Positions 6,232-54,268 of a DNA stretch of 64,000 nucleotides are shown here, one piece after another. A model generated the notes under the pieces. It was not told where the DNA came from and did no database searches. It saw nothing but the letters and a program-made list of their open reading frames with translations. Source of the DNA: Erysipelotrichaceae bacterium (lineage in GTDB: Bacteria > Bacillota_I > Bacilli_A > Acholeplasmatales > Anaeroplasmataceae); NCBI GenBank assembly GCA_015059145.1, contig SVAZ01000006.1, forward strand, positions 2,268 through 66,267. Reading direction: 5' to 3'. How positions within the stretch are numbered: position 1 is the stretch's first letter; the number at the start of each line of letters is the position of its first letter. The position numbers and the translations under genes were made by a program.

Positions 6232-8560
6232 TTTCATCACCATCACTTTCCTCTAGAAATGATTTTTTCTCTAGATACTTTAAATTGTCTGTAGTTTTAT
6301 AGCATAAGTCATAATAGCTACAAAAGCTACAAGCCGAATTCTTACCCTCAATATTCTTAGATAAAATATCAAATGAGCCATTCCTAATTTCCTTGCTAGC
6401 ATTATTAATCATTTCATCTACTAACGAAATAAGCTCATCCATTTTTTCATTGCTGATAATGTTTGCATTTTTGCTAAAGTCTCCACTTTTTAACGTAGAA
6501 AGCTTTGCAATATATGTACTCTTGTTATATTCCGGATCAAACATAGGGATAAGCTCATGACTTCTAATAGTAAAGCCTTGAAGCTTAAAAGCCTTTTCTC
6601 TTTGAGCAACAATATCCATTGAATTATCTAAAGCAATAATATTAACCTTTTGTAAATATATACCAATAATATTAATTTTCTTACCCTTAAATTTTTCATA
6701 CTTGCTCAATAAAAGCATGTAGCATGGTAGCTGTAAATTAAAGCCATCAGCAACATTATCTAATGAAACAACATCCTTGCCAGTTTTATAATCAACAATT
6801 ACTGCATAAATCTCATCATTAATAATCGTATACATAAGCTTATCAATATAGCCCTCAAAGGTAAATTCGTTAGCTTCATATTCTATATGAACCTCACGTT
6901 CAATATTATTAAGCATAGACTTCTCTTCATGCTCACGATTATATACAATTAAATCTCTTAAGACCTCCTCCATAACAGTAAAGTAGAATCGATCCTTAGA
7001 ATCAGTAGCATTTGATAGCTTACTTTTCTTAGTAGATTCATTAAAATCAAAATCATCATTATAGCTATCCTCTAATACTGCATGAGAAAATGTTCCAAGC
7101 CTTGCTGCCATATTAGGCTTAAATTCATTTAGGCCTAATATTCTATCTGCATAATAAGCAAATGGACATCCAAAAAAAGTCTTAATGCTTGAATACGAAA
7201 TTCTTAATGGCTTTTCACTAAATCTCTCATCAAGTAGCCTTTGATCAATTCTCTTATATGAATTATCAAAGCTATTAAACTTAAGATGACTAGCATCATA
7301 CTTATTTAAAGCATCTGACTCTTGATTATATTTTACCAGCCTTGTGTATTCAACACCCAACCTAATATCATCCTCAAGCTTAGAATAGCCATAGGCTGCA
7401 TTAGCGGCTTTAACCTCAAGCTTTAGCTCTATAATACAATTAGAAGGCAAGCACTCCTCTGATGCTATTGATTTTTTATATGAGACAAATATATTCTTAG
7501 TTCCTAATAATGTATTCATCAAATTGTCCTTAGATTTAATATTTCTATCAACAGATGTAGGTAATGAAATTAATGATAATTCCTCATCATTTAAATATTC
7601 ATCGTCCTTATAAACCTTAGGAAGTGCACCCAAATTAAGACCGACAATAAACAAATATTCATCATCACTATAATGCTTCTTAGCTATAGTAGATACCATT
7701 TCAGTATATTTTTCTTGCTTGAATCCAGCCTTCTTAAATTGCTCATAAAAGAAAGACTTATAGTCCTTTGGTTTCTTCTCCTCTAGATTATAATCAATAA
7801 TTAAATTCATAATATATTTATAATAATCACTATTGATATTTAGCTTTTCTAAAATATCCTTAAAGCTTTTCTCTATATCACAAAGCATTAAAAATTCATT
7901 AGCTATAGCTAGTGAATTAATATTAGCATCTGCCGGAAGATTAATTGGAATATTGTAGCCTTTTGCTAATCTTCTAAAAATAAAGGCATAATCCTTATCT
8001 ACATTATTTATATAAATCTTATTTAATGAAACACCCTTTTTATAAAGCTCTGCAATTTCATTATATACATATAAGCATTCCTCATATATATCATTAAATT
8101 CATAAACACATGGATTGTATTTATTCGCCTCATTATTAATTTCTATAACCTCTGTATAAGCTGACACTATATCCTTAATTCTTCTAACCTGGACTGTATC
8201 ATCAATATCTATAAAGCTCATTGGATATTGATTCAATCTGTAAATAAAAAAATCATCTTTATCAAAAAGCCCAGCATCACATAAAAGCCTCTTAGCAGAA
8301 GCTAGGCTATCTAATCTAAGACTTTTATATCCTCTATCCTCGATATATGGGATATATCTCAAATATTCCTCTGCCTCCTCATAGCTTAAGCTATATTTAT
8401 CAACAAGCAAAAATATAGCCTCAGGCTTATGTCTTCCTAATAGCTTAGCCTCAAGCTCATTTACGCTTAAAAATATATAATTTTTGAAGTCCTTATTTTC
8501 TCTTATTATTTGCTCCTTCATATAAGAATCACAAATAATAAATCCCTCTTTTAGTTTCAT
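6218..8560 (-). CDS. addB: AddB/RexB-type PD-(D/E)xK nuclease with Fe-S cysteines
   Basis: ISYSSIKTFFGCPFAYY, GYIDKL...VDYKTG, LQLPCY, CSFCSYYDLC; overlaps the addA start. Confidence 0.88.
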   Translation of the reverse strand: MKLKEGFIICDSYMKEQIIRENKDFKNYIFLSVNELEAKLLGRHKPEAIFLLVDKYSLSYEEAEEYLRYIPYIEDRGYKSLRLDSLASAKRLLCDAGLFDKDDFFIYRLNQYPMSFIDIDDTVQVRRIKDIVSAYTEVIEINNEANKYNPCVYEFNDIYEECLYVYNEIAELYKKGVSLNKIYINNVDKDYAFIFRRLAKGYNIPINLPADANINSLAIANEFLMLCDIEKSFKDILEKLNINSDYYKYIMNLIIDYNLEEKKPKDYKSFFYEQFKKAGFKQEKYTEMVSTIAKKHYSDDEYLFIVGLNLGALPKVYKDDEYLNDEELSLISLPTSVDRNIKSKDNLMNTLLGTKNIFVSYKKSIASEECLPSNCIIELKLEVKAANAAYGYSKLEDDIRLGVEYTRLVKYNQESDALNKYDASHLKFNSFDNSYKRIDQRLLDERFSEKPLRISYSSIKTFFGCPFAYYADRILGLNEFKPNMAARLGTFSHAVLEDSYNDDFDFNESTKKSKLSNATDSKDRFYFTVMEEVLRDLIVYNREHEEKSMLNNIEREVHIEYEANEFTFEGYIDKLMYTIINDEIYAVIVDYKTGKDVVSLDNVADGFNLQLPCYMLLLSKYEKFKGKKINIIGIYLQKVNIIALDNSMDIVAQREKAFKLQGFTIRSHELIPMFDPEYNKSTYIAKLSTLKSGDFSKNANIISNEKMDELISLVDEMINNASKEIRNGSFDILSKNIEGKNSACSFCSYYDLCYKTTDNLKYLEKKSFLEESDGDENGLD

Positions 8561-25393: not shown

Positions 25394-26157
25394 AACATCA
25401 TCTCAATTCTTTTTAATAAATCTTTTACCTCATTGCTATAGCATTTATCCTGCCATATTTCTTCAGCCTTTATTGCTTGTCCTACAAGCATAAATAATCC
25501 ATTCATATTAGATTTAGCATCAGCTAAAAGCTTAGTAACTCTAGGATTAAAAATAATATCAACTACATTTTTAGCTTTCTTTGTGATCTTTTCATCAAGT
25601 GGTGATGCATCAACATTAGGATACATCCCAACTGGAGTTGTATTAACAATTAAATCAATATTTCTTTTAGCTAATTCATCATATGTAATTGTATTATCAT
25701 TTTTTGGATTTCTAGATACATATAAAGCATTCCCTCCTAAATCAATTAACGCTTTATATACAGCAAGTGATGCTCCACCTGTACCTAAAATATAACAATC
25801 CTTATTTTTAACCTCAACCTTGTAATAAACTAATTCATTATAAAATCCATAATAATCAGTATTAAAACCAACAATCTTACCATTGATGCTAGCAACAGTA
25901 TTTACACTACCTATGGCCTTCGCCTCAGGAGAAATTTCATCTAAATACTTGATAACCTCAACCTTATAAGGAATTGTTACATTAAACCCTTGAAATTCGC
26001 CCATTCTTAGCTTTTTTATTGCATCAGGAAGCTTATCCCTTTCTACCTCTAAAAGCTCGTATGTGGCTTCAATTCCCATATCCTTAAATATTTCCTTATG
26101 AATCATAGGAGAATAGCTATGAGATAGCTTTTCACCTAATAAAGCATACCTTTTCAT
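25390..26157 (-). CDS. aroE: Shikimate dehydrogenase
   Basis: HSYSPMIH, GFNVTIPYK, GSVNT, NTDYYG, GTGGA. Confidence 0.96.
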   Translation of the reverse strand: MKRYALLGEKLSHSYSPMIHKEIFKDMGIEATYELLEVERDKLPDAIKKLRMGEFQGFNVTIPYKVEVIKYLDEISPEAKAIGSVNTVASINGKIVGFNTDYYGFYNELVYYKVEVKNKDCYILGTGGASLAVYKALIDLGGNALYVSRNPKNDNTITYDELAKRNIDLIVNTTPVGMYPNVDASPLDEKITKKAKNVVDIIFNPRVTKLLADAKSNMNGLFMLVGQAIKAEEIWQDKCYSNEVKDLLKRIEMML

Positions 26158-26429
26158 TACTTGATCAAATCCTTTTGATAATCCTTAGAGGCTGTTAGCA
26201 TTCCTTCAATAAATGTTAAATAATATTCCTCTAATTCCTTATTATTTAAAATCTTTAAATTCTTTTCCTTTAATAAATTCTCTCTTTTTTGATCTAAAAT
26301 AGGAAGGTTGTTGTCGCTTTTATATTCTGCAACCATTTTTGCAGCTTCCATTCTTTTAATAAAAAGCTCAATCATTTTTGCATCAACATCATTAATAATT
26401 TCTCTTGCTAATTCTAGCTTAGTCTTCAT
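26157..26429 (-). CDS. Chorismate mutase type II, stand-alone
   Basis: LAREIINDVDAKMIELFIKR...ILDQKRE; start ATG 26429 overlaps the aroA stop. Confidence 0.9.
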   Translation of the reverse strand: MKTKLELAREIINDVDAKMIELFIKRMEAAKMVAEYKSDNNLPILDQKRENLLKEKNLKILNNKELEEYYLTFIEGMLTASKDYQKDLIK

Positions 26430-48946: not shown

Positions 48947-50038
48947 TTATTTTTTTCTTTTATATTCCTTTATAGGTAAAACAAGTGCATAAACCATATC
49001 ATGCTCATTTTTCTCATATTGCTTTAATATCATATCTAGATATGAAACTGCACCATTTACTCTTTTGATTGTCGCTTCCTTTTTCAAAGCCTTAATAGAT
49101 GTTATAAATAACGGATGATTAGAATTATCTAAATAATCCAAATATGAATACATACTTTTGTTCTTATTTAAAAATCTATATAACGAAGAAATATACATAG
49201 GCGTTTGCTTGAATGTTTCAACCTTGTATTTTGATTTATACACGAGCTCATATATTTTGATAAGCTCTAAGCCTATACAGTAAAATATTACGTTCTTTTC
49301 CTCCATAGTAGCCGCCTTATAATTAACAAGCTTATCTATTAAATCCTTTCTCCATAAAACTCTATGCTGCTCCTTCTTAGAATTAGGATATAGCTTTTTA
49401 TATTCCTTAATAAAATTATCAAACGATGCTAAATAATCTCTATTCATATAATAGTCATCAACCACTACCGAAATATAAGCCTCTAATGATGTTTTATTTT
49501 TATCATTAGCCGCAAGCTTGTAAAGCTCATCCAGTAAAGAATTAGCCTCCTGATAATATGATTTCAAAATATCAATAACATTTATTTCCTTTTTAATTAC
49601 GTCATCCTTTGTATAGATATCGTAGGAAAATGTTTGTGGAGTAATAGACTCATTATCTAAAATACAATAAGCTAAAGTATCACTATCAAATACACGATTA
49701 GAAGGATGACCAACAACATCATTTCTTATATATCTCAATTGTCTTAAATCCTTGTTATTATTAATATTAATAAAGCTTTTACTCTTAGTTAAGGATAAAG
49801 CTAAAGAATATAATGAATCTACTGAAACAAACAATCCCTGAAGAAGTGCATACAGCCTTAGAATATTATCTCCGACTGAATGCTTTTCATTAGCCCATTT
49901 AAAATAACTCTTTTGAATTTCATTAGTCGTTTCTAAAGCACTAATAGCTGCAGCCATAGAATAATTCTTTATGCTTAAGTAATATTTAGAATCAAAGCGT
50001 TCTATTCTTCTTTCGTTTTCTTTAATTATCTTATCCAT
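48947..50038 (-). CDS. Hypothetical protein with HEPN-like RN-x4-H motif
   Basis: LYALLQGLFVSVDSL...LRYIRNDVVGHP (49706-49726) in a helical N-terminal region; fold inferred. Confidence 0.55.
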   Translation of the reverse strand: MDKIIKENERRIERFDSKYYLSIKNYSMAAAISALETTNEIQKSYFKWANEKHSVGDNILRLYALLQGLFVSVDSLYSLALSLTKSKSFININNNKDLRQLRYIRNDVVGHPSNRVFDSDTLAYCILDNESITPQTFSYDIYTKDDVIKKEINVIDILKSYYQEANSLLDELYKLAANDKNKTSLEAYISVVVDDYYMNRDYLASFDNFIKEYKKLYPNSKKEQHRVLWRKDLIDKLVNYKAATMEEKNVIFYCIGLELIKIYELVYKSKYKVETFKQTPMYISSLYRFLNKNKSMYSYLDYLDNSNHPLFITSIKALKKEATIKRVNGAVSYLDMILKQYEKNEHDMVYALVLPIKEYKRKK

Positions 50039-50082
50039 AATTCCTCCTTAAAAAATAAACACACGAAAACTCGTGTATTTAT

Positions 50083-51270
50083 TTATTGATACTTATTAAC
50101 TAAATAGCTAATAAATTGAGCAGCACACCTTCCTGATAAAGAGCCATATTTAAGCTCCCACTTGCTAGCCTCTTGAATTAAAATGCTTTCTTCCACCTTA
50201 ATATCATTCTTATTAGCAAGCTCCTTTACCATAGCTCTAAACTCCTTAGGTGATAATGAGCTATAGTAGATTTGTAAACCAAAGCGATAAGCCAAGGAAA
50301 GCTTTTCTGCTTGAGTTTCGTTACGATGTAGATCATCAGCTAAATTATCTATAGATGTTTCCTTAATTAAATGTCTACGATTAGATGTAGCATAAATAAC
50401 TACATTATTTGGCTTAGGCTCGATTCCACCCTCAATAATACTCTTTAAGTATTTATATTCAATTTCATCCTCCTCGAAAGATAAATCATCCATATAAATT
50501 ATATAATGGTATGGTCTAGCTCTTAAGGTATGTATAATCTTAGATATTTCCTCCATTTGATGCTTATATACCTCTATAATTCTAAGGCCTGCTGCATAAT
50601 AGGTATTTAATAATGCCTTAATAGATGTTGATTTACCAGTACCTGATTCACCATATAATAAAACATTATTACATGGCTTCCCATTAATAAAGCATTCTGT
50701 ATTTTCAATTAATAAGCTCTTTTGATAATCATAACCAATTAAATCATTAAAGCTGACATCTAAAACATTATATATTGGGGACAATACTCCATCTTCAACT
50801 CTAAATGCCTTATAGATAGCCATATCAGCTAACCCTTTTGTTTTATAGAAATTTAAAATTGAAGACTTAAATGTATTAATATCCTTAATATCATTTTTTA
50901 TTTCATTAACTATCTTTGAAATATCTGTAGTCCTTGTACAATAATCAAAATTCTCTATTTCCTGTAAATCAAGCTTATAGGTATACATTTTATAATAAGT
51001 CTCTAAATCAAAATCAACTAAATTAAATGTGCTAGCATTTATATTTCTTTCTATACTTCTAGTATAAGCATTATCATTAAACATTAAGGAATAAATTAAA
51101 AATGATTGCCATATATTACCAGTGAAACCATATTCTATCGCTAAAGAGCACAATGATGATTTAAAAGTATTAGCCTTATAACTATTTTTAAATTCAATCC
51201 AGTTATTACATCCATCTAAAAATATAGACATTATATCTTTATGTATTACATTATCAAACAAATAAAACAT
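50083..51270 (-). CDS. DUF815-family AAA+ ATPase
   Basis: LLYGESGTGKSTS, YMDDLSFEEDE, SIIEGG, YATSNRRHL, SGRCA. Confidence 0.9.
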   Translation of the reverse strand: MFYLFDNVIHKDIMSIFLDGCNNWIEFKNSYKANTFKSSLCSLAIEYGFTGNIWQSFLIYSLMFNDNAYTRSIERNINASTFNLVDFDLETYYKMYTYKLDLQEIENFDYCTRTTDISKIVNEIKNDIKDINTFKSSILNFYKTKGLADMAIYKAFRVEDGVLSPIYNVLDVSFNDLIGYDYQKSLLIENTECFINGKPCNNVLLYGESGTGKSTSIKALLNTYYAAGLRIIEVYKHQMEEISKIIHTLRARPYHYIIYMDDLSFEEDEIEYKYLKSIIEGGIEPKPNNVVIYATSNRRHLIKETSIDNLADDLHRNETQAEKLSLAYRFGLQIYYSSLSPKEFRAMVKELANKNDIKVEESILIQEASKWELKYGSLSGRCAAQFISYLVNKYQ

Positions 51271-51442
51271 AATCATCACCTCTTAATTACACAATAATTA
51301 TAGCATTCATTTAAAAATTTATAAATGATTAAAAAAAATAAAATAAAAGACTTTCAATTCCTTTACTAAAAATGTATATAATGATATAATAGAGTTAATA
51401 GTTTCGATTGTAAAATAATTAATAAGCAAAGGAGATTTTAGT

Positions 51443-51862
51443 ATGTCATCAGAAAAACACAATTTACTCTTAATTATAGGTCGTCCAGGTTCTGGAAAAT
51501 CTAAATTTCTTCACAACTATTCTAAGGACAAGGGAATACCTATTTTAAATCTGGACAACATTTTAGGCAAGCAAATTCCAGAAGGAAAGGATGCTAATTA
51601 TGTCTATGAATTTATTAGAGGATTTTTAGCAAGCTATAAGCCTCAAGAAATTCTAATCGATAAAAAAACTATTTTATACCAAAAGGATACTGATATAGAT
51701 CTATTAGACTTCCTAAAGGAAATATCAGCAAATAAAACAGTCATTACAACTTGGACTGGATGGACTGAAAACAACAAGCTTATCCATGTATGTGAAGAGC
51801 TTGGCACTACAGTCGAATATCCATTAGACTCAATTAATTGTCAATATATGGAGCTTAAATAA
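51443..51862 (+). CDS. BrxF-like small P-loop protein
   Basis: LLLIIGRPGSGKS, LNLD, LLDFLKEISANKTVITTWTG...KL resemble BrxF's SRNKTVxxxWxG pattern (recognised by eye). Confidence 0.65.
   Translation: MSSEKHNLLLIIGRPGSGKSKFLHNYSKDKGIPILNLDNILGKQIPEGKDANYVYEFIRGFLASYKPQEILIDKKTILYQKDTDIDLLDFLKEISANKTVITTWTGWTENNKLIHVCEELGTTVEYPLDSINCQYMELK
51749..51862 (+). repeat. Direct repeat copy 1 (3' end of the brxF-like gene)
   Basis: 51749-51853 identical to 52348-52452 (105 bp); last 9 nt differ only by CTT vs TTA (Leu). Confidence 0.97.
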
Positions 51863-51863
51863 T

Positions 51864-52340
51864 ATGAAAGAACTAGTATTACATCAAACACAAGACAAAG
51901 AAATAAATGAAGAAGTTAGGATGATTGTCGAAAAGGATTATATTTCAATAATTGATTGCGAAAATCAAAATGATCAAATCAGTTATAATGATGAAATAAA
52001 ATATACTAGTATTATGAAGGATAATATAGCGTTAATAAGATACGAAGCAAATCATAATACTCAAAAAAAAATTAATGCTGGTCTAATAGGATTAGGAATA
52101 CTAATATTCTTAATTTCAATATTCCCATTCGTTTATGAATTAATTGGCTTAGGTATAGCACTTCTAATAATAGGTATGATTTTGATAATCGTAGGTGGAT
52201 TGACTACTAGGAGAGGTCATACAACTAAGATGGGAAATTTTAAAATCATTAATTATCAAGATGAAATAATATATTCAAAAAATATAATACTAGAACAAGA
52301 GCAAATTAATGAAATCATAACATCAATTCATCAAGAATAA
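51864..52340 (+). CDS. Hypothetical two-TM membrane protein between the repeats
   Basis: 158 aa, hydrophobic hairpin GLIGLGILIFLISIFPF...IGMILIIVGG; starts 1 nt after the brxF-like stop. Confidence 0.75.
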   Translation: MKELVLHQTQDKEINEEVRMIVEKDYISIIDCENQNDQISYNDEIKYTSIMKDNIALIRYEANHNTQKKINAGLIGLGILIFLISIFPFVYELIGLGIALLIIGMILIIVGGLTTRRGHTTKMGNFKIINYQDEIIYSKNIILEQEQINEIITSIHQE

Positions 52341-52347
52341 TTTGGCT

Positions 52348-52461
52348 ACTTGGACTGGATGGACTGAAAACAACAAGCTTATCCATGTATGTGAAGAGCT
52401 TGGCACTACAGTCGAATATCCATTAGACTCAATTAATTGTCAATATATGGAGTTAAAATAA
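52348..52461 (+). repeat. Direct repeat copy 2 (stranded brxF-like 3' fragment)
   Basis: Encodes TWTGW...MELK* with no start codon; followed by a terminator. Confidence 0.97.
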
Positions 52462-52462
52462 C

Positions 52463-52488
52463 AAATGCAGCTTAGGCTGCATTTTTTT
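52463..52488 (+). terminator. Intrinsic terminator after repeat copy 2
   Basis: AAATGCAGC-TTAG-GCTGCATTT plus T tract. Confidence 0.85.
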
Positions 52489-52577
52489 GCATATAAAATT
52501 AAAAAATGACTATCCCTCACGAATAGTCAATCTATTAAATATCAAGCAGTAAATCCGGCTTAATAATCACTTCTATA

Positions 52578-52654
52578 TGGCGCATCCAAGAGGACTCGAA
52601 CCCCTAACCTTTTGATCCGTAGTCAAACGATCTATCCAATTGATCTATGGATGC
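52578..52654 (-). tRNA. tRNA-Arg(ACG)
   Basis: GCATCCA acceptor, TTTGA-CTACGGA-TCAAA anticodon arm, GGTTCGAG T-loop, encoded CCA; 77 nt. Confidence 0.97.
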
Positions 52655-52686
52655 ATGTATATTAAGTTGACGGTTAAAAAAAATAA

Positions 52687-52762
52687 TGGCGGTCCGGACG
52701 GGACTTGAACCCGCGATCTCCAGTGTGACAGACTAGCATGTTAACCACTACACCACCGGACC
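52687..52762 (-). tRNA. tRNA-Asp(GTC)
   Basis: GGTCCGG acceptor, CTGTCAC anticodon loop, GGTTCAAG T-loop, encoded CCA; 76 nt. Confidence 0.97.
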
Positions 52763-52780: not shown

Positions 52781-52810
52781 ATTATAGCATAACAATAAAT
52801 CATAATGCAA
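52781..52810 (-). promoter_or_regulatory. sigmaA promoter of the tRNA pair
   Basis: TTGCAT-N18-TATAAT with extended TG. Confidence 0.75.
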
Positions 52811-52869
52811 GTCTTTTTATTCTTTTTTTGCAAAAAAATATTCCCCTAGATTTCCTAGGGGAATTTTAA

Positions 52870-53823
52870 TTATTTATCCTTTGCTATCTCTTTAATAGCT
52901 GTAACTGTAGTTGCTAAATTTTGCATATCTGATGGAACAATAATCTTTGTTGCTTGACCATCTGCAACCTTTTGCATAGCTTCATAGCTCTTAAGCTTTA
53001 ATACTGCCTCAGTAACATTTGCTTCCTTTAAAAGCTTTAAACCTTCTGCTTCTGCTTCACGAGTAATTTTAATACCCTCTGCTTCAGCTGTTTTAACCTT
53101 AAGAATAGCTTGTGCTTCACCCTCAGCCTTACGAATCATTGCTTCTCTATCAGCTTCAGCTGTTAAAATTTGAGATTCCTTCTTACCTTCTGCAAGTAAA
53201 ATTTGAGACTTCTTTTCACCTTCTGCTAAAAGAATCTTTTCTCTACGCTCACGCTCAGCACGCATTTGACGTTCCATCGCATCACGGATATCCTTTGGAG
53301 GTAAGATATTCTTAACCTCTACACGATTAACCTTAATACCCCATGGATCTGTAGCCTCATCTAAAATTGAACGCATCTTTGTGTTAATGATATCACGGCT
53401 TGTTAAAGTTTCATCTAAATCTAATTCACCGATGATATTACGTAATGTTGTTGCAGATAAATTTTCAATTGCTGAAATTGGATTTTCAACACCATAAGCA
53501 TATAGCTTAGGATCAGTTACTTGATAGAATACAATTGAGTCAATTTGCATTGTAACGTTATCCTTAGTAATAACTGGCTGTGGATCAAAATCCTTAACCT
53601 GCTCCTTCATTGAAACAATGTAAGCAATCTTATCCATAAATGGAACTAAGAAATGGAAGCCTACACTCCATGTAGCGTGATAACCACCAAAACGCTCAAT
53701 AATATATTTATTTGTTTGACGAACAATTCTAATTCTTGAAATTAAATAAGCTACTATTACTAATACAATAATACTTGCAACAACAGCAACTAAAACATAT
53801 GTACTTTGACCACTTAAAAACAT
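52870..53823 (-). CDS. SPFH/stomatin-family protein
   Basis: VITKDNV, TTLRNIIGELDLDETL, WGIKVNRVEVK, QMRAERERR. Confidence 0.95.
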   Translation of the reverse strand: MFLSGQSTYVLVAVVASIIVLVIVAYLISRIRIVRQTNKYIIERFGGYHATWSVGFHFLVPFMDKIAYIVSMKEQVKDFDPQPVITKDNVTMQIDSIVFYQVTDPKLYAYGVENPISAIENLSATTLRNIIGELDLDETLTSRDIINTKMRSILDEATDPWGIKVNRVEVKNILPPKDIRDAMERQMRAERERREKILLAEGEKKSQILLAEGKKESQILTAEADREAMIRKAEGEAQAILKVKTAEAEGIKITREAEAEGLKLLKEANVTEAVLKLKSYEAMQKVADGQATKIIVPSDMQNLATTVTAIKEIAKDK

Positions 53824-53836
53824 TTTCTTTTCTCCC

Positions 53837-54268
53837 TTATTCTTCTATTTTTTTAACTACTATTTTATTACCTCTAAGAGTAACAACCTCTACAATGCTA
53901 CCCTCTTCAATAGCTTCCTCTACATCCTCCATAAGGACTGCAGAATAAACAATACCATTCACCTTTATTTCACCAGCGTTATACTTTGTTACTTCCTTAT
54001 CTAACTTAACTCTCTTACCTACAAACTCATCAACATTTGTATGTCTAATTGCTCTTTCAGTCATCTTTTTAACTAAAGGACGAGTAAATGCTAAGGCAAG
54101 TAAAGAAACAACGCTAAAAATAAGTATTTGAGCCCATATTTCTAGAGCAAATGATGAAACAAGTGCTACTAAGGCTCCTACAGCGAACCATATAGACACA
54201 AATTCCTGTGTCACAGCCTCTACTATTACCGCAATAACAAATATTGCTAGCCAAATCCATACCATCAT
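53837..54268 (-). CDS. NfeD-family protein
   Basis: N-terminal TMs, GEIKVNGIVYSA OB-fold; canonical partner of SPFH. Confidence 0.9.
   Translation of the reverse strand: MMVWIWLAIFVIAVIVEAVTQEFVSIWFAVGALVALVSSFALEIWAQILIFSVVSLLALAFTRPLVKKMTERAIRHTNVDEFVGKRVKLDKEVTKYNAGEIKVNGIVYSAVLMEDVEEAIEEGSIVEVVTLRGNKIVVKKIEE

Follow-up and report, generated by a model that had tools for sequence, protein, structure and literature searches.

A one-gene insertion, without a recombinase, behind a brxF-like gene and flanked by a long duplication of that gene's end

How does a gene come to lie behind a resident gene, one nucleotide past its stop codon and ahead of its terminator, between two long copies of the resident gene's own 3′ end, when nothing that could have moved it is found alongside? 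The locus that raises this question is in a window of 64,000 nucleotides (positions 2,268 to 66,267 of contig SVAZ01000006.1 in assembly GCA_015059145.1, from an Erysipelotrichaceae bacterium placed by GTDB in the Anaeroplasmataceae), and coordinates below count from the first nucleotide of that window. The genome is metagenome-assembled (1.43 Mb in 34 contigs, 31% GC, 94% complete), and the contig with the module is referred to as C3.

Anatomy of the module

The features on which the argument turns are the following.

51362..51390, plus strand: promoter-like site, TTTACT-17-TATAAT with TG (consensus scan; prediction only)
51443..51862, plus strand: resident gene for a BrxF-like P-loop NTPase, 139 aa (PADLOC BrxF match)
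51749..51862, plus strand: repeat copy 1, 105 nt exact and then CTT AAA TAA; working 3′ end of the brxF-like gene
51854..52347, plus strand: inserted segment, 494 bp (boundaries set by aligning the two copies and by L046, an empty-site contig)
51864..52340, plus strand: cargo gene, here called Y, 158 aa (ORF list, hydropathy, AF2 model)
52348..52461, plus strand: repeat copy 2, 105 nt exact and then TTA AAA TAA; native 3′ end of the brxF-like gene, displaced downstream
52463..52484, no strand assigned: intrinsic terminator (9-bp stem, T-runs on both strands), native to the brxF-like gene
52578..52762, minus strand: tRNA-Arg(ACG) and tRNA-Asp(GUC), at the border of a spot whose content varies among relatives

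The direct repeat is exact over 105 nt (51749-51853 and 52348-52452, at a spacing of 599 bp), and with the comparison carried on through the stop codon the repeat is 114 nt long at 98% identity (51749-51862 against 52348-52461), with the sole mismatches in the terminal CTT AAA TAA of copy 1 as against TTA AAA TAA of copy 2, both of which specify L-K-stop. A match was obtained in none of 100 shuffles that preserved dinucleotides, and a repeat of this length and exactness cannot be chance. Within the 1.43-Mb genome the 105 nt occur twice, both times at this locus. Copy 1 makes up the final 38 codons, stop included, of the 139-codon brxF-like gene, and its GGAG at 51850-51853, 10 nt upstream of the Y ATG, is the putative ribosome-binding site for Y, whose ORF begins 1 nt past the brxF-like stop codon; the terminator in turn starts 1 nt downstream of copy 2. 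A reading of the window from sequence only had described a perfect 105-bp duplication of a gene's 3′ end with copies 599 bp apart, a last 9 nt that differ synonymously only, a GGAG provided by the repeat ahead of a 158-aa membrane gene, and a terminator following the second copy, and each of these holds at the positions just given.

The insert starts CTTAAATAAT-ATG and finishes TAA-TTTGGCT. It is foreign DNA, with a GC content of 25% where the brxF-like gene has 32% and the genome as a whole 31%. The predicted promoter is the likely start of a transcript that covers both the brxF-like gene and Y. Around the module are genes for a DUF815 protein, a HEPN-like protein, typA, a Band_7 protein and NfeD, and a search against Rfam returned no RNA besides the tRNA-Arg and the tRNA-Asp, of neither of which is there an att-like partial copy in the window.

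Which of the two gene ends is native

The resident protein matches the PADLOC BrxF entries PDLC02497 (E 8e-20) and PDLC02496 (E 6e-11) and its Walker A motif, GRPGSGKS, is intact, while its match to Pfam AAA_33 stays below the cut-off. The sequence match is shared with the BrxF of type 3 BREX, whereas here there is no BREX operon and the neighbours are unrelated. Orthologues are present in 19 other genomes of the genus (56-74% identity), always as a single gene and in several different neighbourhoods. Since PglZ is encoded nowhere in the genome and the orthologues stand alone, the gene is an orphan outside any BREX system.

The orthologues also offer a view of what the end of the gene looks like when nothing has been added to it. 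At 15 of the 18 orthologue loci examined the C-terminus is of the form Y(M/I)ELK, with the majority reading GAA TTA AAA TAA, and at all 18 a hairpin and T-run come within a few bases of the stop. Neither the cargo gene nor a duplicated gene end is present at the orthologue loci of any of the related genomes, a comparison that had been proposed in the sequence-only reading. The orthologue ends match copy 2 with its terminator and not copy 1. It follows that copy 2 and the terminator are native, copy 2 being the original gene end displaced downstream, and that the CTT AAA TAA junction at copy 1 came about with the insertion.

The junctions

At the left joint the native end of the brxF-like gene reads GGAGTTAAAATAAC, and the junction of copy 1 with the cargo reads GGAGCTTAAATAATATGAAAGAA. 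Upstream of the homologues of Y (dealt with below) the sequence takes the forms GGAG-N10-12-ATG and ..AATAAT-ATGAAAGAA, and for one of these homologues, L067, it is GGGAGAAAAAAATAATATGAAAGAA. The start of the insert resembles these 5′ UTRs, and CTT AAA TAA seems better explained as part of the sequence that the cargo would have carried with it.

The similarity available at the left joint is GGAG(C)TTAAA-TAA against native GGAG-TTAAAATAA, and that at the right joint is TTGGCT/ACTTGGACT. The right junction itself, TAA TTTGGCT / ACTTGGACTGG, is mid-gene with respect to the brxF-like gene and beside the TTGG(A/C)CT similarity. Each of the two has the look of an illegitimate joint made where there is short similarity, a post hoc reading for which the donor was not found. 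On the simplest reading the cargo brought a ribosome-binding region of its own, and joining at the interrupted patch of GGAG, TTAAA and TAA would have the consequence that the new junction still encodes L-K-stop, and selection for an intact conserved C-terminus may have contributed to the same outcome.

Comparable modules in the same genome

A comparison of the genome with itself, in which long (>100 nt), nearby, non-tandem direct repeats were sought, bears on whether this locus is alone. All four repeats of that kind proved to be cargo flanked by duplicated gene ends, and the genome-wide search for similar 3′-end duplications, proposed in the sequence-only reading, has thereby added three modules to the one considered here. 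By contig, with the repeat, the resident gene, the cargo and the empty site given in that order, they are as follows.

C3 (this module): 105 nt exact (114 nt, 98%); brxF-like NTPase gene; gene for a 158-aa membrane protein; empty site in L046, 1.3 kb
C31: 350 bp, 94%; penicillin-binding-protein-like gene; Fic gene; no empty-site contig obtained
C33: 238 bp, 97%; gene of 138 aa with terminator; four genes including ADP-ribosylglycohydrolase and Fic; empty site in L061, 13.3 kb
C1: 235 bp, 97%, with a third partial copy; GerE-type HTH gene; gene of 350 aa, then a set including GNAT and Fic; empty site in L127, 8.1 kb

The empty-site contigs L061 and L127 mean that the C33 and C1 modules are polymorphic among near-identical strains, and the one copy present in each contig is a hybrid, combining parts of both repeat copies. 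For the C31 module, an exact-protein look-up with the neighbouring DUF1016 protein gave no match. That the repeats of the sister modules are 94-97% identical, which counts against simple target duplication, fits better with a diverged donor having supplied one copy along with the cargo; the four modules may differ in sub-mechanism. There are four modules per 1.43 Mb, three of them with presence and absence between near-identical strains (for C3, by way of the 1.3-kb L046).

Routes of insertion

For the module at the brxF-like gene, the explanation that appears probable, if modestly so, is a one-off illegitimate insertion, assisted by microhomology, with duplication of 105 nt of the target. A foreign fragment of 494 bp, bearing Y together with its own ribosome-binding region, would have landed at the end of the brxF-like gene in an event that copied the gene's final 101-105 nt, and it would be host recombination, repair or template switching on the incoming DNA that made the joints. 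The proximal copy would keep the NTPase gene intact, with its final GGAG serving as the ribosome-binding site of Y, and the brxF-like gene, Y and the distal copy would form one transcription unit of which copy 2 is an untranslated tail. Recombination or slippage between the 105-nt repeats could then remove Y and one copy, restoring the ancestral sequence exactly. The insertion is probably recent. Certain observations sit uneasily with this explanation: a donor sequence for the cargo was not found, an exact L-K-stop at the new junction needs either microhomology or selection, and the sole empty-site contig for this particular module is only 1.3 kb in length.

A rather unlikely route, though the one that comes next in order, is integration of the Campbell or ‘ends-in’ type, in which a circle of about 599 bp, with the last 114 nt of the brxF-like gene joined to Y, would enter by one crossover. 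Insertion-duplication of the Campbell type is a laboratory tool and is natural for integrated circles, and a layout of homology, insert and homology, a regenerated target and reversal mediated by the repeats are common to it and to the present case. The geometry is exactly that expected from a single crossover, as the sequence-only reading had recognized, and what stands of its proposal is that the target gene has been preserved by the insertion; for the circle or the brxF-Y donor, no counterpart is present in the contigs or in relatives. The cargo-adjacent end of the repeat has the non-native CTT, as if brought with the cargo, and the 94-97% identity of the sister repeats, together with their hybrid empty sites, is what such a route would leave. 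The population also recombines imported DNA, as is evident from strains that differ by short dense mosaic tracts (52795-52918 and 53737-53960), and ComEC is present in the genome; both observations also count for the illegitimate insertion. However, simple deletion predicts hybrid empty sites equally well, and the Campbell route requires the same two illegitimate joints with an extra crossover besides. It needs, in addition, an earlier genome with brxF-Y and no copy 2, of which neither the roughly 22 contigs with Y nor the related genomes offer an example, and no contig has the circle junction. As distinct from the classical case, the circular donor was not found here, and the left end of the duplicated segment is mid-gene and featureless.

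The illegitimate, microhomology-assisted insertion has also to be set against the involvement of an enzyme. It is improbable that the module is a remnant, or a satellite mobilisable in cis, of a site-specific element whose integrase acts in trans. Elements that integrate into the 3′ ends of genes carry replacement ends, e14 in icd and the islands that target tRNA genes being familiar instances, and replacement gene ends are to this extent expected of such an element. The homologue of Y in genome G116 adjoins a tyrosine integrase gene, and in an assembly 94% complete an integrase could have been missed. Against this, recombinase genes are absent from the module and from the 4 kb on either side of it, in accord with the statement of the sequence-only reading that no integrase or transposase is present, which holds for the module and its neighbouring genes. 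The tyrosine and serine recombinases of the genome are on other contigs and consist of two Xer-like tyrosine recombinases of Xer size (C4 and C6) and a small serine recombinase of 202 aa (C8). The repeat is present nowhere else in the genome, and no tRNA end is duplicated in the window. The whole of the 105 nt is identical, instead of there being a short core and a diverged surrogate, and the four modules have no boundary motif in common, which speaks against a site-specific enzyme.

Filled and empty sites in metagenomes

The population from which the genome was drawn provides a separate view of the locus. The identical arrangement is shown by at least 24 independent contigs of JGI and ENA metagenomes. 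Exact-protein look-ups with the NTPase, Y and the DUF815 neighbour gave 22-31 contigs, drawn from a large number of samples in JGI and ENA, Y being encoded on roughly 22. The contigs that span the module and were read are 100% identical to window positions 51300-52600, with the exception of L044, from one sample, in which a 1-nt deletion puts Y out of frame and reflects either a pseudogene or an assembly error. Filled-form contigs reach 71 kb, and all contigs except L046 have the filled form.

L046 (JGI, 1,330 bp) is, base for base, the window minus the 599 bp that make up one repeat and the cargo, and its gene end is TTA AAA TAA followed by the terminator. Since the differences between the two copies are at the extreme 3′ end of the repeat, this sequence is what would be given equally by the ancestral allele or by deletion between the repeats; the contig being short, it could also be a collapsed repeat from a low-coverage assembly. 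With X for the repeat, an empty site would have the upstream sequence followed by X and TTAAAATAAC, and a circle or tandem would have TTTGGCT followed by X and CTTAAATAAT. The latter is not in any contig.

These counts bear on a further proposal, namely that the cargo loops out and re-enters as a programmed on/off switch, with phase variation of Y as its result, for which the likelihood is slight. Direct repeats of about 100 bp are known substrates for deletion, and the pair here would be of that kind; one contig is an exact empty site, and in one sample Y is frameshifted (L044). But the state is one and the same in at least 24 contigs, the circle junction was not seen in contigs, and deletion would be one-way unless there were a system for capture of the circle. 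Of the loop-out proposed from sequence, then, it is the existence of the empty-site form that is borne out by L046, and neither an active switch nor a 599-bp circle finds a counterpart in the contigs.

That the arrangement is an artefact of assembly, as a chimera of strain variants or a mis-resolved repeat, is scarcely credible: the source genome is metagenome-assembled and several contigs (L052-L055 and L119-L121) end within the repeat, but the reads must contain the junction from cargo end to copy 2, and independent assemblies from many samples, among them JGI contigs and ENA contigs with k141_ names, recovered the arrangement in full. Those names suggest a final k of 141, which exceeds the 114-nt repeat, so that single k-mers would support each copy with both of its flanks, and for short contigs to break inside the repeat is as expected of a true repeat. 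The earlier argument that this is no assembly duplication is thus upheld by the contigs, at least 24 in number; the synonymous differences on which it had been founded are better explained by the junction. Tandem duplication was rejected, as the cargo is present once only and unique DNA follows copy 2, as was a diversity-generating retroelement, the 105 nt being identical, the differences being C>T and T>A, and no reverse transcriptase being encoded among the neighbours.

The cargo protein

Hydropathy gives Y two predicted membrane helices, at about residues 70-113, and an AF2 model (pLDDT 81) has five N-terminal strands, a hairpin of two membrane helices, two further strands and a C-terminal helix. 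That Y is a chance ORF was rejected in view of its conserved homologues. A HMMER search of 1.84 billion representatives, in which relatives were counted as 5-6 clusters, yielded five full-length proteins of 158-165 aa at 27-34% identity and a fragment of 69 aa, and two further relatives are encoded in genomes of the same family; the relatives align end to end. The family is real but tiny. A word-index protein search found no homologue of Y, Pfam, PADLOC and PHROG gave no assignment (a holin match in Pfam was below the cut-off, and the PHROGs were without a consistent family), and tblastn against phage records gave no match. Foldseek with the AF2 model against the PDB returned nothing at E <= 0.001, and the top match, ‘Lockin’, was set aside as not meaningful (E 0.1, TM 0.28).

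The contexts of the homologues are more informative. In the three for which context is usable (L066, L067 and G116), the gene is directly after a small gene of the XRE-type HTH kind, and in G116 the order is HTH, Y homologue, tyrosine integrase and tRNA-Cys, with a second, decayed copy 11 kb off. Temperate elements often keep genes for exclusion or abortive infection in such a position within the lysogeny module. A role for Y in exclusion or abortive infection might be proposed by analogy, with low confidence and as a lead more than a demonstration. A possible parallel is with the superinfection-exclusion and moron membrane proteins of prophages, small proteins encoded in the lysogeny module between the genes for repressor and integrase; the homologue in G116 comes ahead of an integrase gene, and characterised exclusion proteins gave neither a sequence nor a fold match to Y.

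Relation to known systems

The closest known kind of event is insertion with long target duplication, which was reportedly described by Nobusato et al. in 2000. In the survey of Furuta, Abe and Kobayashi 2010 (NAR 38:2428, PMC2853133), it comprises gene units with flanking direct repeats of >30 bp, the repeats being from 46 to >400 bp and corresponding to a single copy where a genome has the empty site. Such units are without mobility genes, often overlap the 3′ end of a gene and come mostly from naturally competent species; the inserts are <20 kb, and restriction-modification cargo was a criterion of the screen and not of the geometry, with the mechanism unknown (PMC2853133). The present repeat, at 105 nt exact and 114 nt at 98%, is well above the 30-bp threshold. 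Empty sites are represented by L046, at 1.3 kb only, and by the 18 orthologue loci with a single gene end and terminator. The insert, at 494 bp, comprises one gene, with no integrase or transposase in it or beside it. The cargo is not a restriction-modification system, Y being a membrane protein of 158 aa.

The module is accordingly a clean, enzyme-less example of a kind already described, and it does not amount to a new class of mobile element. Its differences from the described cases are that the cargo is one membrane-protein gene (Fic, ADP-ribosylglycohydrolase and others in the sister modules), that it is fused into the operon of its target, 1 nt past the stop, and that the host, which is related to the Mollicutes, is of low GC. 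What is seen is an insertion without a recombinase that leaves its target intact, is precisely losable by way of its repeats and is near-fixed in the population sampled; dedicated mobility was not seen.

Insertion with long target duplication has so far been tied mostly to restriction-modification genes, and its mechanism has been unknown since 2000. The footprint here is unusually clean: the 105-nt repeat is exact, it is possible to distinguish the native end from the derived one, and the sequence can be read at both junctions. A tentative possibility is that there is a general route, free of recombinases and independent of the nature of the cargo, by which selfish or defence-type genes, such as those for Fic toxins, an ADP-ribosylglycohydrolase and Y, are added directly behind resident genes, with duplication of 100-350 bp and scope for removal through the repeats. 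Cargo other than restriction-modification genes, here and in the three sister modules, supports independence from the cargo. If such a route were to operate, this gut population could serve as a natural system in which to work out how insertion with long target duplication comes about, possibly in connection with DNA uptake. In the case of Y, a gene of a family that apparently belongs to the lysogeny modules of mobile elements has been wired into a host operon with the host gene undamaged.

Insertion by integrases into the 3′ ends of genes and tRNA genes (e14 in icd, tRNA islands and CIMEs) likewise involves a duplicated 3′ end and an intact target, whereas the present case lacks an integrase, a reused site and a short core accompanied by a diverged surrogate, and the boundaries vary between modules. 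Further parallels come from the ‘orphan’ 3′ ends of Rhs, CDI and T6SS loci and from illegitimate recombination facilitated by homology (Kirchberger et al. 2017, PMC5361080). In those loci too, new DNA comes to be behind a conserved upstream gene and the old 3′ part is pushed downstream, with no recombinase. There, however, it is the variable toxin end that is replaced, with the immunity gene kept, whereas here the displaced part duplicates the gene end exactly and is without an evident function. The arrays of Rhs, CDI and T6SS loci can grow by repetition, with which the array on contig C1 of this genome may be compared.

Sister modules in the same genome

Cargo between duplicated gene ends is also found on three other contigs of this genome (G000), all outside the window, with the repeats placed as follows.

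C31:6212-6560 and 8050-8398, repeat pair, 350 bp, 94% identity, offset 1,838 bp
C33:22772-23009 and 26083-26319, repeat pair, 238 bp, 97% identity
C1:2862-3047, 6558-6873 and 8082-8326, three repeat copies

On C31 the duplicated segment is the 3′-terminal 350 bp of a gene for a 635-aa penicillin-binding-protein-like product, the cargo between the repeats is a 408-aa Fic-domain gene, and a DUF1016/YhcG nuclease gene adjoins the distal copy. With C33, the segment comprises the 3′ end and terminator of a 138-aa gene, and the cargo is four genes, two of them for products of 188 aa and 110 aa and the others for an ADP-ribosylglycohydrolase and a Fic protein. This cargo is absent from a 13.3-kb contig of another strain (L061), where the single repeat copy is a hybrid.

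The C1 case involves a GerE-type HTH gene of 68 aa, whose 3′ end, terminator and promoter region form the repeated segment. Its three copies set apart two cargo sets, one being a 350-aa HExxH-like protein, while the other is made up of a GNAT, a Fic and an XRE gene plus one of 229 aa. The first cargo is absent from contig L127. Copies 2 and 3 also have about 45 nt in common to the left of the repeat, and simple target duplication leaves this shared flank unexplained.

Strain variation in and beside the main module

Four contigs from other samples (L042, L049, L053 and L054) are the same as the window sequence outside two short tracts, 52795-52918 and 53737-53960, located around the end and start of the Band_7 gene, each with 15-35 differences. 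The pattern is mosaic, as is typical of recombination with diverged DNA. Within the cargo gene itself, a single sample (JGI 3300032167; L044, L117) has a 1-nt deletion at 52033 (TT to T) that breaks it in two, leaving one ORF of 56 aa and another of 54 aa, and it is these fragments that constitute the 100%-identity matches to the cargo protein in the 50%-identity representative library.

Related genomes

In the window, one gene pair lies near brxF.

48947-51279, minus strand, DUF815 AAA ATPase gene and 363-aa gene

The pair is kept in G022, the closest syntenic relative (64% and 57% identity respectively, with the flanking typA and Band_7 at 88%). For the 363-aa gene, HEPN-like on the sequence-only reading, no family match was found. 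The typA-to-Band_7 stretch of G022 has an additional 526-aa gene, by appearance a putative asparagine synthetase, and, in place of brxF, a 184-aa gene beside tRNA-Arg.

A relative of the cargo gene is carried by an integrative element in another genome, G116.

G116:C1:138500-158000 (L068), integrative element at tRNA-Cys

Its gene order is integrase, cargo-gene homologue and XRE repressors. A second, decayed copy with integrase and homologue truncated lies about 11 kb away, the two sharing a 552-bp repeat (99.6%); the arrangement suggests that elements accreted in tandem at a single attachment site.

Multi-copy sequence at contig ends

Several G000 contig ends have copies of one recurring sequence (130-245 bp, 91-98% identity), probably an unassembled repeat, e.g. 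an insertion sequence or rRNA-flanking element.

C22:1-167
C7:1-248
C29:28-272
C27:124-252
C32:23413-23579
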